In this document: positions 30,020 to 62,232 of the stretch, piece by piece
How the letters are laid out: every line of letters begins with the position of its first letter
How positions within the stretch are numbered: position 1 is the first letter of the stretch
Source: a virus
Reading direction: 5' to 3' (one strand)
Length of the DNA: 64,000 nucleotides
Virus record (IMG/VR): IMGVR_UViG_3300032053_000047
Span: 1-64,000 of that record
The notes under the pieces: model-generated
What the model was told of the DNA's origin: nothing
The model's input: the letters and a program-made list of their open reading frames with translations, nothing else
Databases searched by the model: none
Made by a program: the position numbers and the translations under genes

Positions 30020-30399
30020 TGGACTGGACCAAATACATCGGAATCCCTTTCTCCTGGCATGGCCGCGACTGGACTGGCGTGGATTGTTACGGCATTCTAT
30101 GTCTCGTATTTGAAGCGCGCGGCATTATCCTACCCGACTATGGGTATTTGGACGCCCCCAATCTTACGCCACTTTTTAGTGCGGGTCTCCACGAATCGTG
30201 TTGGCGGCGAGTCGATAAACCCACTACATTCGATGCCGTACTGTTTTCGATCAACGGCCAGCCGCTTCATTGCGGCGTTATGGTGGATGACACGCGATTC
30301 CTGCACGCCCGCGCGGGCGTGAACAGTTGTATTCAGCGCGTAGACGGTATGGCGTGGCGCAACCGCGTACTGGGGTTCTACCGATATGTACAGCCCTAG
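30019..30399 (+). CDS. NlpC/P60 tail peptidase (gpK-like)
   Basis: YIGIPF..GRDWTGVDCYG, HCGV, FLHA, GFYRY. Confidence 0.9.
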   Translation: MDWTKYIGIPFSWHGRDWTGVDCYGILCLVFEARGIILPDYGYLDAPNLTPLFSAGLHESCWRRVDKPTTFDAVLFSINGQPLHCGVMVDDTRFLHARAGVNSCIQRVDGMAWRNRVLGFYRYVQP

Positions 30400-41011: not shown

Positions 41012-41390
41012 CGTTCGGCCAATCTAAACTGCCCGCCGCGCCGGACGCCGCTGCGTTGGGACGCCAGGAAGCCCAGCACGGGGCCGCGTTTGACCCGCAG
41101 CACGTGCGCGAGCGGACTAAGGGTATAAGCGTCCGGTTCCTGCTGCTCGCCTTGTTGAGGCGGCTGCGGCATAAATAGTTTTCCCCACGTCGCCGGGCCT
41201 ATCCCTCCCCCGGCGACTCCTCCCCAGCCCGTCCCGGATAGCCCACCGGGGCGGGCACCCTGTTTGCTATCGAGTCCGCTGAAAATACACCCTTACTATA
41301 CTACCGCAATATCAATATTTTCCCGCCCGATTATCCCGTAACTCTATACGGCACAAGGACTTACGGCCTTCGTAATTATTTTAAAAAGTG

Positions 41391-46067: not shown

Positions 46068-46439
46068 TCAATTCTCCTCTTTTATCGCTGCTAAAATCCG
46101 TTCGATGTTTCGTTTGTTCTTTCCATATGCGACAATTTGGCCTAATGTCTTAGAATTGGCCTCGATACGCGTAGTTTTTTCGTCTACGGGGGTGAGAATC
46201 AGCGTGACTTCATCACCCCATGTCCAGAGACTTACCGGCGTACCTGCTGTGATTATGCCCGCCTGTTTATCACTGAACTTGACGGTCCAACCAAGATCGG
46301 CGACTGCACGGACCGCCGCAGAGAAAGCCGTATCTATATTTCCGCCGTAAACGACAGGGTCAATGCCGCCGCGCCCCGTACTCGTGGAAGCACACCCGAA
46401 GAGGAACAAAACTAAAACAATACACAATCCGCGTTTCAT
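46068..46439 (-). CDS. lipoprotein (lysogenic conversion/exclusion candidate)
   Basis: lipobox LFGC. Confidence 0.75.
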   Translation of the reverse strand: MKRGLCIVLVLFLFGCASTSTGRGGIDPVVYGGNIDTAFSAAVRAVADLGWTVKFSDKQAGIITAGTPVSLWTWGDEVTLILTPVDEKTTRIEANSKTLGQIVAYGKNKRNIERILAAIKEEN

Positions 46440-46442
46440 CGC

Positions 46443-46955
46443 CTACCGACCTCCGTAGTTGCTCGCGCGCGCTTCCCGTTTATGCGTCACCGCCTCAATG
46501 GCTTTTTGTCGCCATAATGCTGTATCTCCGGCATTTCCGGGCGCAGTCTGAGTGATCGGCACAAGATCTGTATGAATGCCGTCTGGCAGATTGGCAGATG
46601 CACCACTTGCCGCGTCAATCCCTATGCCTATAGGCGCAAGCAGGCCGATTAGTAATAGGTTGCCAAAACCCGATCCCGCCGCGTTCTTTCCTACTGTTCG
46701 GTTAATAGGAGAGGTGACGGTATGATATCCGTCAAGAGTGTAGGTAGCAAAATAGTTCTTCTTTTTGGAGAGTTTTATTGTCCCCGGTGTGGTAGTCGTA
46801 AAGTAAAGACCCGGCTTTTTCGATTCCACGGCCACCTTTGCGCCGCGAGGTTCAGAGGTAAAAGTAACGTTCTTGCTCGTATTGCCTAGAATTGTAGCGC
46901 AACTCGCCAAAGAAACGAGCATAATTATAATCACTGCAACCCTAACCCTTCTCAT
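46443..46955 (-). CDS. PEGA-like domain lipoprotein
   Basis: lipobox LASC-ATI; FTSEPRGAKV; GIDAASGA. Confidence 0.78.
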   Translation of the reverse strand: MRRVRVAVIIIMLVSLASCATILGNTSKNVTFTSEPRGAKVAVESKKPGLYFTTTTPGTIKLSKKKNYFATYTLDGYHTVTSPINRTVGKNAAGSGFGNLLLIGLLAPIGIGIDAASGASANLPDGIHTDLVPITQTAPGNAGDTALWRQKAIEAVTHKREARASNYGGR

Positions 46956-47159
46956 AATGTCCCCTTTCTCGGTTTTTCCACTAGCTTTGTCCAGTGTTTC
47001 CTTCAATAATACCGTATTACTTATAACTCCTATTGACAAAGAAACCTATTGGTGATAAAAGGATTCCGCTGCGGTGCAGGCCACTCCTGAGTCTGCCGGG
47101 GTGCCGCCGATCCTGCCTAAATGATTTGGGGAGGTACGGGCATGAAGTCACAATACGAG

Positions 47160-47570
47160 TCATTTTTTGCCTGTCTTAAACGGCATCTCGGCGCGATCCA
47201 TCGCGGTCGCATAGCAGGTTACAAACGTGCCAAGCTTTTCGATCTTTCGGTCGAGGCTGAACTCGCGGTCGGGCAAATTAAGAGCAGCGGCAAGCGCATT
47301 CGCGTCAAGCCTGGCAACCCTAAGCGGGTCCGAAGTTGAATCGCTAATTTCAGCGGGCGGCATTATCTTCATAATAAATCCATGTTCACGCAACCAAGGC
47401 TCTAGGCTGGAACGCTTCTCTGGGCCAAGAACGCCACGGCTCACAAAATCATACAGCGGCTGCGGAGTTTTCAATCCAATTGCTTTGGCGATATCTGTTA
47501 CGTGAATTCGCTTAGACGCGGCGGAAAGCGCCGCTCGTAGCCGTTCTTTTTCCGGTTCCATGTTGAACAT
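47160..47570 (-). CDS. putative repressor (HTH)
   Basis: VTDIAKAIGLKTPQPLYDF; divergent from cro-like gene. Confidence 0.6.
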   Translation of the reverse strand: MFNMEPEKERLRAALSAASKRIHVTDIAKAIGLKTPQPLYDFVSRGVLGPEKRSSLEPWLREHGFIMKIMPPAEISDSTSDPLRVARLDANALAAALNLPDREFSLDRKIEKLGTFVTCYATAMDRAEMPFKTGKK

Positions 47571-47638
47571 TGTAAACGCTGTAAGTCCTTATCACAAGCC
47601 TCTCTAGAGCAATCTAGACACCCCAGTCAAAATTCCTC

Positions 47639-47667
47639 TTGACAAATCTAGGTAAATCGTCTAAGAT
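47639..47667 (+). promoter_or_regulatory. rightward lytic promoter with AATCTAG operator-like repeats
   Basis: TTGACA-17-TAAGAT; AATCTAG at 47611, 47645, 47677. Confidence 0.75.
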
Positions 47668-47693
47668 TCTAAACGGAATCTAGGAGGTACACG

Positions 47694-48005
47694 ATGAACA
47701 AAGACAATAATGACCGCCCGCCGAGGGCTGAACGGCTTCGTGAATTACGCGGTGAACGAACCCTCCGCGAAGTAGCTAAACAGTTGGGGCTTTCACCTGC
47801 AACCATATCACTTAATGAAAATGGATACCCAATTTCCGCCGAGGTAGCCAACCTCTACAGCCAATTCTATGGCGTCGAAGTATCCGAATTTTGGACGCCA
47901 CCGGAACTTCCAATGGCCGACGCGGCCCAATCCGCGTCCTCTTGCGCTGACAATAGTTTACCACTGGCCGACGAAAATTTCAACCTGGAAGATGTCCATG
48001 CCTAA
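47694..48005 (+). CDS. Cro-like XRE HTH regulator
   Basis: LRELRGERTLREVAKQLGLSPATISLNENG; AGGAGG SD. Confidence 0.88.
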   Translation: MNKDNNDRPPRAERLRELRGERTLREVAKQLGLSPATISLNENGYPISAEVANLYSQFYGVEVSEFWTPPELPMADAAQSASSCADNSLPLADENFNLEDVHA

Positions 48006-48288
48006 AGTCGCAACTGCCGATCTCGCGATGCGCGAGTACTGGACCCCCGCCCAGGCGGCGCGGGTGCTCGGCCACGGGGCGGCATTCTGGCGGGCCGCGT
48101 TTGACCGCGGCGACGTCCAGGGGCAACTCGCGGGGGATCGCCGGTATCTAGTCGCCGGTTCAGCCCGCGTCTACCTGACTGGCCTATGCCGGGCCACTGC
48201 GCCCACAAAACCGCTGCAAACCCGCGGAGAAGCGGCTGTAGCGCGGTTCATGGCCCAACATGGGGCGCGGCCAGTTAGTACGAATTGA
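47998..48288 (+). CDS. excisionase-like HTH protein
   Basis: WTPAQAARVLG...GDRRYLV. Confidence 0.6.
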   Translation: MPKVATADLAMREYWTPAQAARVLGHGAAFWRAAFDRGDVQGQLAGDRRYLVAGSARVYLTGLCRATAPTKPLQTRGEAAVARFMAQHGARPVSTN

Positions 48289-48330
48289 CGAAAACGGAGG
48301 GGATCTGAAATTTGAATCGGCAACGCCGAC

Positions 48331-48404
48331 GGCAGGCTTGGCGCGGCTAGGCACGGCGAGGAATGGCCTGGCTAGGACCGGCTGGGCACGGCATGGGATG
48401 GTTT
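48331..48404 (+). repeat. GGY-NN pentamer array 1 (putative guide RNA)
   Basis: GGCA followed by 14 GGN-NN units, intergenic. Confidence 0.85.
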
Positions 48405-48423
48405 ACAAAATGGAGGAAACAAC

Positions 48424-49095
48424 GTGAAGAAGACAGAGGAAGCGGAAGCGGCACCAAAACAAAAGACGGTTTTAATTGAAAAGCCAAACATGGAAATCGG
48501 GCTTTTCCGTATCCGTGGAACGGCTCCTTATGTGCAACACCGTTTCGCCACGAAAGCCAAGGAAATGATGAAGGCGAAACAGGAAGCCGGATCAACGGCA
48601 GCAAAAGGCGCAAAGCGAGAAGCTAAAAACTTCATGGCAGAGTATGAGGCGGCGATGTACAAGATCGGCGCAAACGGGAAACCGGTGGAACATGGCATTC
48701 CCGCGCCTGCATTCCGTAACGCCATGATCTCGGCTTGCCGGGTTGTCGGCTTCCCTATGACGCGCGGCAAGTTGGCCGTGTTTGTGGAGGCCGATGCGTT
48801 CGATGAAAGCGACGGCACGCCCTTGGTGCGCATCATCAAAGGCAAACCCCACTGTACTGAAATGCCAGTGCGCCTCGAAACAGGCGTGATCGATATTAGG
48901 GTACGCCCGATGTGGGACGCGGGGTGGGAAGCCGAAGTGCGTATCCGATTCGATGCCGACATGTTCACGTTGGAAGACATCGGAAATCTGTTGTTCCGGG
49001 CGGGCGTGCAGGTAGGTATCGGTGAAGGACGGCCCGACAGCAAAAAGTCCTGCGGGATGGGCTGGGGGTTATTCGAGGTTGTCAAAAGCAAGTAG
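48424..49095 (+). CDS. stand-alone Cas7/RAMP-like protein
   Basis: FRIRGTAPYVQH, GIPAPAFRNAM, C-terminal G-rich loop GVQVGIGEGRP...GMGWGLFEV; GGAGG SD. Confidence 0.75.
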   Translation: MKKTEEAEAAPKQKTVLIEKPNMEIGLFRIRGTAPYVQHRFATKAKEMMKAKQEAGSTAAKGAKREAKNFMAEYEAAMYKIGANGKPVEHGIPAPAFRNAMISACRVVGFPMTRGKLAVFVEADAFDESDGTPLVRIIKGKPHCTEMPVRLETGVIDIRVRPMWDAGWEAEVRIRFDADMFTLEDIGNLLFRAGVQVGIGEGRPDSKKSCGMGWGLFEVVKSK

Positions 49096-49123
49096 CCGCC
49101 GCTGTGTGTGATAGTTGAATCAA

Positions 49124-49279
49124 GGCAGGCACGGCGGGGCCGGGCATGGCGGGGCTCAACGGGGTTCGGCTTGGCGCGACTTGGCGAGATAGGCTTGGCA
49201 GGCGCGGTTCGGCGGGGCGGGGCGGGGCGGGGCGGGGTATGGCACGGTTCGGCAAGGCATGGCAGGCATGAAACGGTTG
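49124..49279 (+). repeat. GGY-NN pentamer array 2 (two full units plus a stub)
   Basis: about 29 pentamers punctuated by GGCAGGC at 49124, 49197, 49261. Confidence 0.85.
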
Positions 49280-49280
49280 A

Positions 49281-49763
49281 GTGAGCGAAACGACGAAAGG
49301 ACAGAACGGAATGGACAGTTCAGTGTTGGATGAACTTGAGATGATCCGCGTCAAAAGCGGCGGCGTGCTCAAGCCAGAAGATGTAGTCCAGCGGGCGAAG
49401 GGCAAAAGCAACCCGCTACACAAGTATTTCACATGGGATGATACGGCGGCGGCGCGTGAATACCGCCTGTGGCAGGCCCGTGAGTTAATCCGCGTTCATG
49501 TGCGTATCGAATCACCGGGGCAAACATTTCCAACCCGCGTGTACGTCAGTCTCGATGCCGACCGGCAAGATGCGGGCGGCGGGTATCGCCACATCGACGA
49601 CGTGTTAACCAATACAGACTTGCGCAGCCAACTACTTGACGAGGCCGACCGCGACTTCCGGTATTGGGAAGCCAAGTATTCACACTTGAAAGAACTCGCT
49701 GGCGTTATCGAATCAATGGATATGGTGCGGACAAGACGTAGCAAGAAATCCAAGGCGGCGTAA
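49281..49763 (+). CDS. conserved phage protein linked to the RAMP-like gene
   Basis: LKPEDVV..A...NPLHKYFTWDDTAAAREYRLWQARELIR. Confidence 0.75.
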   Translation: MSETTKGQNGMDSSVLDELEMIRVKSGGVLKPEDVVQRAKGKSNPLHKYFTWDDTAAAREYRLWQARELIRVHVRIESPGQTFPTRVYVSLDADRQDAGGGYRHIDDVLTNTDLRSQLLDEADRDFRYWEAKYSHLKELAGVIESMDMVRTRRSKKSKAA

Positions 49764-49773
49764 CGGAGGCCAC

Positions 49774-50049
49774 ATGACGGCACGTAAGTGGAAACAGAAA
49801 CGGGCATTACAGCGGTTCGCGGAGGCGGTCCAGGCGCTACCCGGATTAGCCTTATGGGGAAAATGCAAAACGCTTGAAGACGTTCTGTATCGCGTTGCCC
49901 ATCCCGCTTGGCTGCCAATTGTAGATGCATGTACGGAAAGAACTGGTTTTGCGCCAATGGATGCGGCCAACATCGAATCCCGCAAGGATATTCGCTGGCT
50001 CTACCGGAGGTTACTTACCGCCTGCGGTGTTGATGCACGGCACGTATAG
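49774..50049 (+). CDS. hypothetical protein
   Basis: GGAGG SD. Confidence 0.6.
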   Translation: MTARKWKQKRALQRFAEAVQALPGLALWGKCKTLEDVLYRVAHPAWLPIVDACTERTGFAPMDAANIESRKDIRWLYRRLLTACGVDARHV

Positions 50050-50229
50050 GAGAGGGGCATGAAAACGGCGATAGTCGCGTGTAAATGCGCACACGCATGG
50101 CAGGACGCCCGTTACGGCGCACACAACCGCGTGCATAACTACTCCCCGAACAAAACTTCGCCGAAATGGGTTTGCACAGTATGTCGCGCTGAAAAACCAG
50201 CGCCTAATATTTAAGAAAGGAGAGGAACT

Positions 50230-50463
50230 ATGAGACTAGAACTCTACGGCAGTGGACCACCGCAAGAGCAGGTGACACGGATTCGGGTGCGGCAAAATAC
50301 TGACGCCATCATTATTGACGCAGTTGATGCCAATGGCAACCAAGTAGAGCATGGACTTTTGTTCGAGTTGACACCTAAAGGCCTTGAATGTTTTTGCAAG
50401 GTTAATAAGACATTGGGATTTCCCCTTGAAGGTGCTGGTTATATCAAGGTCATTAACAAATAG
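50230..50463 (+). CDS. hypothetical protein
   Basis: GAGG SD. Confidence 0.6.
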   Translation: MRLELYGSGPPQEQVTRIRVRQNTDAIIIDAVDANGNQVEHGLLFELTPKGLECFCKVNKTLGFPLEGAGYIKVINK

Positions 50464-50520
50464 CCTCCTTCCGCCGCGAGCCGGGGCGCGGAGTAGTACC
50501 CCGGCATAGAATTGAACTGT

Positions 50521-58632: not shown

Positions 58633-58696
58633 CAACAATGCCCGGCGCACGGATGCGCGGGCTTGGGGGCAGGGACGCCGAATGCGGGGAGTTGAT

Positions 58697-59377
58697 ATGC
58701 AGATTAAAAGCCGATGGAATGGCGAAGTACTGTATGAATGTGAGGCCGATAGTCTAATCGAGGTTGTCATTAAGGCCGTAGAAGCGGAGGCCAACCTCGC
58801 GGGGGCCAACCTCGCGAGGGCCGACCTCACGAGGGCCGACCTCACGAGGGCCGACCTCGCGGGGGCCAACCTCACGAGGGCCGACCTCACGAGGGCCAAC
58901 CTCACGGAGGCCGACCTCGCGGGGGCCAACCTCGCGGAGGCCAACCTCACGAGGGCCGACCTCGCGAGGGCCAACCTCGCGGGGGCCGACCTCACGAGGG
59001 CCTACCTCGCGAGGGCCGACCTCACGAGGGCCAACCTCGCGGGGGCCGACCTCACGGGGGCCGAGTTACCACATTTCCAAATCTGTCCTGAAGTCGGTAG
59101 TTTTATCGGCTTCAAAAAGCTAGACAACGGCATAATTGCCACACTATTGATCCCAGACGGTGCGCGGCGTATGACGCCGCTCGGTTATCGGAAATGCCGG
59201 GCTGAACGTGTGCGTGTATTAAGCGGCAATGGCAAAAGTCCAACCGCCAATACCAAACTGGAATACCGCGAGGGCGACATGGTTGAGGCGGACTCGTTTG
59301 ATGATGATATCCGGGTCGAATACAGCCACGGGATCGCGTTTTTTGTGACGCGGAAGGAAGCTGAGGAGTGGATATGA
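58697..59377 (+). CDS. pentapeptide-repeat protein (DUF5758-like C-terminus)
   Basis: A(D/N)LxR repeats (15-nt DNA repeats ~58790-59063); [18 protein letters not shown]. Confidence 0.85.
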
Positions 59378-61548: not shown

Positions 61549-62232
61549 ATGGATATTTTTAGAATCAAGAGTATTAGTGACTTTGAGCAATTCAAAACTG
61601 AAATCGGCTACCACGTGAAAGGACATCTGAAAATCGAATGTCCTATCTCACTCTGTGGATCGTTAATCGTTGATGGGTCCATCCATGCGGGCGAGTCCAT
61701 CAAGGCGGGCGGGTTCATCGAGGCGGGCAGGTCCATCCATGCGGGCGAGTTCATCAAGGCGGGCAGGTTCATCAAGGCGGGCGGGTTCATCGAGGCGGGC
61801 AGGTCCATCCATGCGGGCGAGTCCATCAAGGCGGGCGGGTTCATCGAGGCGGGCAGGTTCATCAAGGCGGGCGGGTTCATCGAGGCGGGCGGGTTCATCG
61901 AGGCGGGCGGGTCGATCCAGGCGCATGAGTCCATCCATGCGGGCGAGTACATCCATGCGGGCGGGTTTGTGTTTTCCTTCACCTTCTCTTTGTCCTGTAA
62001 GTGGCTTGAAACGCGCCTACTGCCGTTTTGGCGCGAATTCTATGCAACTATGCCACCGTTGCAAAAGTGGCGAGACAAGATTCTCAGCAAATCTTCTTGT
62101 TGGGGTGATCTACAAACATTAGTCACGCCTGATGAGGCTATGACTATCTGTGCATGGGATGGCTGGCATCCAATCATTAAGGCGCAACTGGAAATGTTTT
62201 TCGGTCTCAAAAAGCGCGTTGACTTTACCTAA
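61549..62232 (+). CDS. beta-helix hexapeptide-repeat protein
   Basis: (S/F)I(H/K/E)AG(G/E/R) repeats; 18-nt DNA repeats ~61675-61965. Confidence 0.75.
   Translation: MDIFRIKSISDFEQFKTEIGYHVKGHLKIECPISLCGSLIVDGSIHAGESIKAGGFIEAGRSIHAGEFIKAGRFIKAGGFIEAGRSIHAGESIKAGGFIEAGRFIKAGGFIEAGGFIEAGGSIQAHESIHAGEYIHAGGFVFSFTFSLSCKWLETRLLPFWREFYATMPPLQKWRDKILSKSSCWGDLQTLVTPDEAMTICAWDGWHPIIKAQLEMFFGLKKRVDFT

Follow-up and report, generated by a model that had tools for sequence, protein, structure and literature searches.

The closest described counterparts of the locus presented here are the VIPR (Viral Interference Programmable Repeat) systems, which combine a stand-alone ancestral RAMP protein, Vipr, with RNAs (vrRNAs) composed of 9-16 YNNGG repeats in which GGY is constant and NN is hypervariable. 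These systems carry one accessory gene and are located mainly in viruses; they recognise DNA by skipping one base per unit and silence the transcription of competing elements, and no self-targets are reported for them (10.64898/2026.04.26.720920). The same text lists 667 systems of seven types with the accessory genes vap1-6, describes tail-less architectures for types other than II, and shows that the VIPR system of SUSP1 uses NN as a guide; for staggered arrays, the legend of fig. S18 speaks of vrRNAs from positions overlapping by 1 nt, the end of one being the start of the next (10.64898/2026.04.26.720920). The structure of the Vipr filament and the residues of SUSP1 Vipr in contact with GGY are the subject of a second preprint (10.64898/2026.04.26.720927), and a role of VIPR in the competition between phages and satellites is shown in a third (10.64898/2026.10.15.759431). 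Here we describe a locus in the IMG/VR virus record IMGVR_UViG_3300032053_000047, positions 1 to 64,000 of which are hereafter called the window, to which all coordinates refer. We consider it to be, with a probability of about 0.88, a VIPR system of a temperate phage, lying behind a cro-like gene in the early rightward operon. This reading is based on the homology of its central protein to Vipr, the GGY/NN tracts on the strand of the gene, the conservation of GGY, the adjoining accessory gene, the lack of cas genes and CRISPR repeats, and the viral location. A first-pass annotation, made from the sequence alone, had likened the locus to the VIPR architecture, which is indeed in print and matches it. 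The novelty implied by that annotation was not borne out, because VIPR has already been described: the kind of system, its mechanism and its structures are in the 2026 preprints, and the locus adds a natural example and opens no new question. As such it provides a well-delimited VIPR system from a temperate phage whose host is an uncultured bacterium of the sediment, with three guides, a tail-less array punctuated by GGCA and a partner protein predicted to be winged-helix-like. The elements of the module are as follows.

48331-48334, plus strand: 4-nt unit GGCA opening guide 1 (from the sequence; the same register-breaking unit stands between the guides of relatives)
48335-48404, plus strand: predicted vrRNA guide 1, 14 perfect GGNNN units (sequence, null simulations)
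48424-49095, plus strand: vipr, GTG start, predicted stand-alone RAMP (Cas7-like) protein of 223 aa (fold model, profile homology)
49124-49127, plus strand: GGCA unit opening guide 2 (sequence)
49128-49187, plus strand: predicted vrRNA guide 2, 12 units with GG intact in 10 (off-consensus units AACGG and GACTT)
49188-49200, plus strand: junction remnant GATA, unit GGCTT and GGCA (sequence)
49201-49260, plus strand: predicted vrRNA guide 3, 12 units, all perfect and five with the same sequence GGCGG (sequence, TRF)
49261-49279, plus strand: closing GGCA (49261-49264) and three residual units (GGCAT, GAAAC, GGTTG), abutting the next gene (sequence)
49281-49763, plus strand: conserved accessory (vap-like) gene, 160 aa, GTG start at 49281, alternative ATG start at 49311

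The vipr gene is flanked by three in-phase arrays of GGYNN pentamers comprising 14, 12 and 12 units, all on the plus strand. Guide 1 is a high-complexity array with the NN string TT GC TA AC GA AT CT TA CC TG AC AT AT TT, exactly as listed in the first-pass annotation, and the second array of that annotation, said to hold two more full units, corresponds to guides 2 and 3. When the 64-kb window was scanned for in-phase GG units per 75 nt, the arrays scored 14/15 and 13/15, the best score elsewhere being 8, and these three were the only arrays of at least 8 units on either strand of the 72,989-nt record. The two perfect arrays were reached by none of 20,000 mononucleotide shuffles and none of 20,000 first-order Markov simulations, and the imperfect array (guide 2) by none of the 20,000 shuffles and by 6 of the 20,000 Markov simulations; the 5-nt periodicity on both sides of the 223-aa gene is thus far above these nulls. 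The five identical units of guide 3, detected by TRF at 49211-49237, have counterparts in relatives, where runs of four CGAGG units (locus L052) and three TGGGG units (L014) were found, which suggests that units can multiply by slippage. Weak runs of 6 in-phase GG units occur outside the locus at 30056-30095 (plus strand) and 41201-41235 (minus strand); a genome simulated with the Markov model is expected to contain about 0.45 of them, and both are probably due to chance, the former reading as coding sequence.

The GTG start codon of vipr lies 7 nt beyond the ribosome-binding site GGAGG (48412-48416), and the latter begins 7 nt after the end of guide 1. The product of the gene matched no family in Pfam, NCBIfam or PADLOC, Cas families included, and in PHROG it matched phrog_4652 (unknown function, E = 6.5e-14). 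Among 7,610 candidates from the protein database 7,027 were relatives at E ≤ 0.001, nearly all of them unnamed. The AlphaFold2 model, calculated from a 33-sequence alignment, had a pLDDT of 84, and its comparison with the PDB by Foldseek gave 37 matches at E ≤ 0.001, headed by Csm3 and other Cas7-type chains; the nearest solved folds were those of Csm3, Cmr4/6, Cas7-11 and type VII Cas7. The model therefore indicates a Cas7/RAMP fold for the 223-aa protein, as had been proposed from its motifs. No Vipr entry (e.g., 36pp) was among the structure-search matches returned, the Foldseek and VIA libraries ending at 2026-04-08.

The relationship to the experimentally studied Vipr of SUSP1 emerged from profile comparisons. 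When the 90.7-kb SUSP1 genome (KT454805.2) was searched with the family profile of the 223-aa protein (A1), a single site was found, the 200-aa Vipr open reading frame (ORF). Alignment of A1 by hhalign with a profile built from relatives of this ORF (A3) gave a probability of 97.2% and an E-value of 3.9e-11 over 172 columns (residues 23-221), with about 20% identity to SUSP1 Vipr over the aligned columns. In SUSP1 Vipr the residues H17, R138, D177, W178 and R179 hold GGY, as stated in the structural preprint (10.64898/2026.04.26.720927). In the hhalign alignment H17, R138, D177 and R179 are paired with H39, R161, E201 and R203, so that four of the five positions are conserved or conservatively replaced, whereas the fifth, W178 (G202 here), is not conserved. 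R161, E201, G202 and R203 are invariant in the 33 relatives; position 39 varies and is a histidine in this phage. These alignments argue for homology, at the profile level, of the 223-aa protein to SUSP1 Vipr. Relatives of the protein were also present in 31 records of the phage collection (INPHARED/GenBank), all annotated as hypothetical proteins: Cyanophage Cy-LDV1 (55% identity), 25 Mycobacterium phages (33-36% in the listed rows) and 5 Gordonia phages. These phages offer tractable hosts in which this Vipr clade could be tested.

If the pentamers are guides, the arrays should accompany the homologous genes with GGY conserved and NN variable, a comparison that the first-pass annotation had already put forward. 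The related loci comprised 80 from IMG/VR, 49 from metagenomes and 4 from genomes, of which 3 were used, giving 80 and 52 loci in the array counts; the closest relative (82% identity, P0002) did not come up in the locus searches. Arrays of at least 8 in-phase units were present on the gene strand in 72 of the 80 IMG/VR loci and on the opposite strand in 2 (353 versus 3 arrays), and the metagenome and genome loci gave 40/52 versus 0/52 (173 versus 0 arrays). With a threshold of 6 units, an array was found between -400 and +600 nt around the gene in 71 of the 80 IMG/VR loci. Across 3,650 units from 313 distinct arrays, position 3 was C in 80% and T in 9% (89% pyrimidine, entropy 1.04 bits), GG being the criterion by which units were detected and position 3 having no part in the detection. 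The entropies of positions 4 and 5 were 1.91 and 1.99 bits. Thus, GGY is constant and NN is hypervariable and near-random across the relatives. In addition, the guides turn over almost completely: pairs with a vipr DNA identity of 95.4-98.7% shared 1/7, 0/6 and 0/6 guides, with the array leader and trailer conserved, and a pair at 99.7% identity had 6/6 guides in common, some of the loci in this comparison ending at contig ends. The near-maximal entropy of NN together with its complete turnover between near-identical systems is the signature of information-bearing guides and not of a fixed binding site.

The boundaries between guides are equally regular in the relatives. Consecutive guides were offset by a register shift of -1 at 292 of 318 junctions, and the junction logo from 205 unique contexts gave the 4-nt unit GGCA, with C in 98% and A in 94%. 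The number of units per guide peaked at 10-11, within the published range of 9-16. The data on guide turnover and the sharp junction logo could be useful for the automatic annotation of such arrays. In one IMG/VR locus (L073), 13 pentamer arrays form a separate cluster some 2.1-2.7 kb upstream of vipr; this may be a detached or 'solo' array of guides such as has been described for other phages (10.64898/2026.10.15.759431).

The 160-aa gene downstream of guide 3 is a conserved partner of vipr: its homologue adjoins vipr in 75 of 83 loci. The protein matched phrog_15946 (unknown function, E = 2.3e-27) and no family in Pfam, NCBIfam or PADLOC. Its structure was predicted to consist of an N-terminal winged-helix-like domain and a C-terminal helical hairpin, and Foldseek returned no match at E ≤ 0.001. 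For phrog_4652 and phrog_15946, both listed in PHROG without a known function, Vipr and Vipr partner, respectively, can serve as annotations.

The comparison with the published types was made with type II VIPR (SUSP1, KT454805.2, PDB 36pp, and a Pseudomonas fulva prophage) and with the staggered architecture. The type II systems and the present locus share a homologous Vipr (with R161, E201 and R203 here at the positions of R138, D177 and R179), a small partner gene directly after vipr, guides upstream and downstream of the genes, and a guide length of 12-14 units. They differ in that the phage studied here is temperate and siphovirus-like, whereas SUSP1 is a lytic myovirus of the Ounavirinae. 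They also differ in the absence here of a long invariant 3' tail with a pseudoknot. Since the guides are separated by the 4-nt GGCA alone and carry no structured tail, the locus does not belong to type II, and the tail test places it with the tail-less, staggered architecture. The staggered systems likewise have a stand-alone Vipr RAMP gene, GGY/NN guides, one adjoining accessory gene and a phage location, and the guides of the present locus abut with a 1-nt register shift, which fits the wording of the fig. S18 legend, the comparison being with the text of that legend. The locus was also compared with the Cas7 backbones of class 1 CRISPR systems (Csm3, Cmr4, type VII Cas7 and Cas7-11). In contrast to them, the protein encoded here has no partner Cas subunits, repeats or adaptation genes beside it; their period is 6 nt with 5 read bases, whereas that of VIPR is 5 nt with 2 read bases, and the guide of the present locus is a genome-encoded tandem repeat and not an acquired spacer.

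Possible targets were sought with the published rule of a 1-nt skip. The database scans used exact seeds of 8-11 units, by which targets with scattered mismatches are missed. In the phage's own genome no self-target of guide 1 was detected (best 18/28), in agreement with the first-pass annotation, which had seen no convincing full target by eye, and the best site for guide 3, scored with the closing GGCAG as a 13th unit, was 18/26; no skip length stood out in this genome save that the arrays matched themselves at skip 3. In IMG/VR, the seeds of guide 1 units 1-9, guide 2 units 1-10 and guide 3 units 3-12 each gave 0 matches, and the same was true of guide 1 units 2-12 in the genome contig collection and of guide 1 units 3-12 in the metagenome contig collection. 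Guide 1 units 3-10 gave 13 matches in IMG/VR, the top three of which, from related large contigs, reached 23/28. This candidate lies in a gene for a large repeat-domain surface protein, where the skipped base is the first of the codon and not the wobble base, and it was rejected because about 0.15 such matches were estimated to occur by chance, which is within chance for 13 seeds. The single IMG/VR match to guide 1 units 5-13 (20/28 overall) was chance-like outside the seed and was also discarded, as was the best score of 21/24 among the IMG/VR stretches found with guide 3 units 5-12 (81 seed matches; 80 of 88 stretches scored), which is within chance. When 101 guides of relatives were compared with 559 kb of local DNA, a match of at least 80% was obtained for 8/101 real and 10/101 shuffled guides; this database was too small for a test of the skip rule.

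Several of these results weigh against the assignment to VIPR. The link to SUSP1 is weak unless profiles are used on both sides: the search of PDB sequences with the single protein returned one match, the 'SUSP1 Vipr protein' 36pp_D, at a non-significant E-value of 0.42, the search with profile A1 alone was not significant either (E-values of 0.36-0.42 for this kind of comparison), and alignment of the profile to the single target sequence gave a probability of 58.9%. In addition, W178, which stacks on G2 in SUSP1, is aligned with G202 here. The partner protein showed no sequence similarity to SUSP1 vap1 (probability 0.3%), its resemblance to winged-helix proteins is below the reliable level of the tool, and the structured tail of type II is replaced by 4 nt between guides. 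The exact-seed scans gave no convincing target for guide 1, 2 or 3, which is weak evidence because only exact seeds were used, and the 1-nt skip rule was unconfirmed for this clade, with no skip length enriched in the 559 kb. Finally, part of the array may be decaying, because GG is missing from two units of guide 2, the junction of which is also broken, and guide 3 is of low complexity.

The last point leads to the alternative that fares best, namely that the locus is a genuine VIPR system by descent but is now a decaying or idle copy, in which the arrays persist without function. The loss of GG from 2 of the 12 units of guide 2, the degenerate junction with GATA where GGCA is expected, the slippage-like look of the five identical units in guide 3 and the absence of a target in any collection searched are all consistent with such a state. 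At the same time, guide 1 is perfect over 14 units and of high complexity, the ORFs of both vipr and the partner gene are intact, and Vipr retains all 51 columns that are invariant across the 33-sequence alignment; the blank of the target search, being from exact seeds, counts for little. We therefore regard decay as improbable. An even less probable explanation is that the arrays are not guides at all but G-rich structural or protein-binding DNA or RNA (iterons, a G-quadruplex or a regulatory leader), to which the RAMP protein binds for autoregulation only. Runs of GG at a 5-nt spacing could form G-quadruplexes. The position of guide 1 just before the ribosome-binding site of vipr would suit a regulatory role, and so would the finding that 23 of the 78 related loci whose upstream DNA was long enough likewise have an array immediately ahead of the gene (6-unit threshold). 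However, at the same threshold most arrays of the relatives are situated behind vipr or behind the partner gene (67/80 loci), the entropy and turnover of NN are those of guides, and a guide function of NN has been demonstrated for the homologous SUSP1 system. Descent from a type III, IV or VII CRISPR-Cas system, the loss of its remaining cas genes leaving a lone Cas7 and the pentamer arrays being unrelated to it, would account for the nearest folds and for the one UniRef relative named 'CRISPR-associated protein', but it has next to no probability, given that the complete virus record contains no match to the Cas1 or Cas2 families and no CRISPR-like spaced repeats (the only matches of the script being two coding tandem repeats), much as the first-pass annotation had noted cas genes and CRISPR repeats to be absent from the window, that the protein matches no Cas family in Pfam, NCBIfam or PADLOC, and that the arrays co-occur strand-specifically with a gene family that has profile homology to Vipr.

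Under the preferred reading as a VIPR system, the way in which the locus could work is modelled on the published SUSP1 experiments. The first-pass annotation had proposed that each subunit binds one GGY and displays NN as a gapped guide; this agrees with the mechanism published for SUSP1 and may be extended to the present phage by homology. A single transcript would cover all three guides together with vipr and the accessory gene, and this RNA would yield three vrRNAs of 12-14 pentamers each, bounded by the 4-nt GGCA units. Vipr protomers would polymerise along a vrRNA, one per pentamer, burying GGY and displaying NN, and the resulting filament would bind double-stranded DNA in which the NN string is matched when one base is skipped in each unit, and would block transcription there. 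The likely targets would be competing phages or other mobile elements, and the winged-helix-like partner protein could assist in the process.

The regularity of the junctions also allows a more speculative proposal, that GGCA is a self-acting punctuation mark, the break in register ending one Vipr filament and starting the next, and that guide 1 additionally exerts feedback on the synthesis of Vipr. Guide 1 ends 7 nt before the ribosome-binding site of vipr, and thus a filament formed on the unprocessed leader could cover this site and throttle Vipr synthesis when the protein has become sufficiently abundant. If GGCA acts in this way, the boundaries of the guides would be set by the period of the protein, and neither a structured tail nor an enzyme dedicated to processing would be needed. 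Such built-in feedback is not described in the available portions of the published VIPR text. We consider this combined proposal unlikely, although less so than decay of the system.

The source record is a virus contig of 72,989 nt from a sediment metagenome, estimated by CheckV to be complete. It contains genes for terminase, portal, head, tape measure, tail and integrase, which gives the locus a viral setting, in a phage that is temperate and siphovirus-like. Among the sequencing runs there was no RNA run containing the stretch, the sole run listed being probably the DNA sample of origin. In genomes, the nearest relatives of Vipr were from metagenome-assembled genomes (MAGs) of Pirellulales, Phycisphaerales and Bacteroidota (47-59% identity), and the sole named relative of the terminase was from a Candidatus Omnitrophica MAG (55% identity). 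The surroundings of the module contain the following features.

47597-47569, minus strand: divergent promoter-like site (consensus scan)
47639-47667, plus strand: promoter-like site (TTGACA, spacer of 17 nt, TAAGAT) preceding the cro-like gene (consensus scan, 10/12 matches)
47694-48005, plus strand: Cro/CI-type helix-turn-helix regulator, 103 aa (Pfam HTH_3, E = 6.4e-08; PHROG transcriptional regulator)
47998-48288, plus strand: 96-aa ORF between the cro-like gene and guide 1
50186-50203, plus strand: terminator-like hairpin, the first one downstream of the module (consensus scan; putative function)

The divergent promoter-like pair sits between a minus-strand ORF of 136 aa and the HTH_3 gene, and the site at 47639-47667 may be an early rightward promoter from which the entire module could be transcribed. 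The first-pass annotation had placed the locus directly downstream of cro; this was not correct, as the 96-aa ORF, which had no match in Pfam or PHROG, intervenes. None of the 83 related loci contained a homologue of the cro-like gene, of the 96-aa ORF or of the ORF next downstream of the module, and the first two are context outside the conserved module. Two tRNA genes lie beyond the hairpin at 50186-50203, and no Rfam family or other structured element was found within 47000-50500.

On the minus strand at 46068-47039, two small genes are situated between the integrase and the putative repressor. One of them matches phrog_6823 (unknown function), and both have N-termini that by eye resemble those of signal peptides or lipoproteins; they look like morons expressed during lysogeny. 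Farther downstream, a 15-nt tandem repeat in 18 copies (alternatively 60 nt in 4.6 copies) occupies 58789-59064 within the ORF 58682-59377, whose PHROG matches are one tail-fibre family and several families without a known function, and by its look it is a coding repeat of five residues. An 18-nt tandem repeat in 16 copies at 61675-61967 lies within the ORF 61549-62232, for which no PHROG match was obtained, and corresponds to a coding repeat of six residues.

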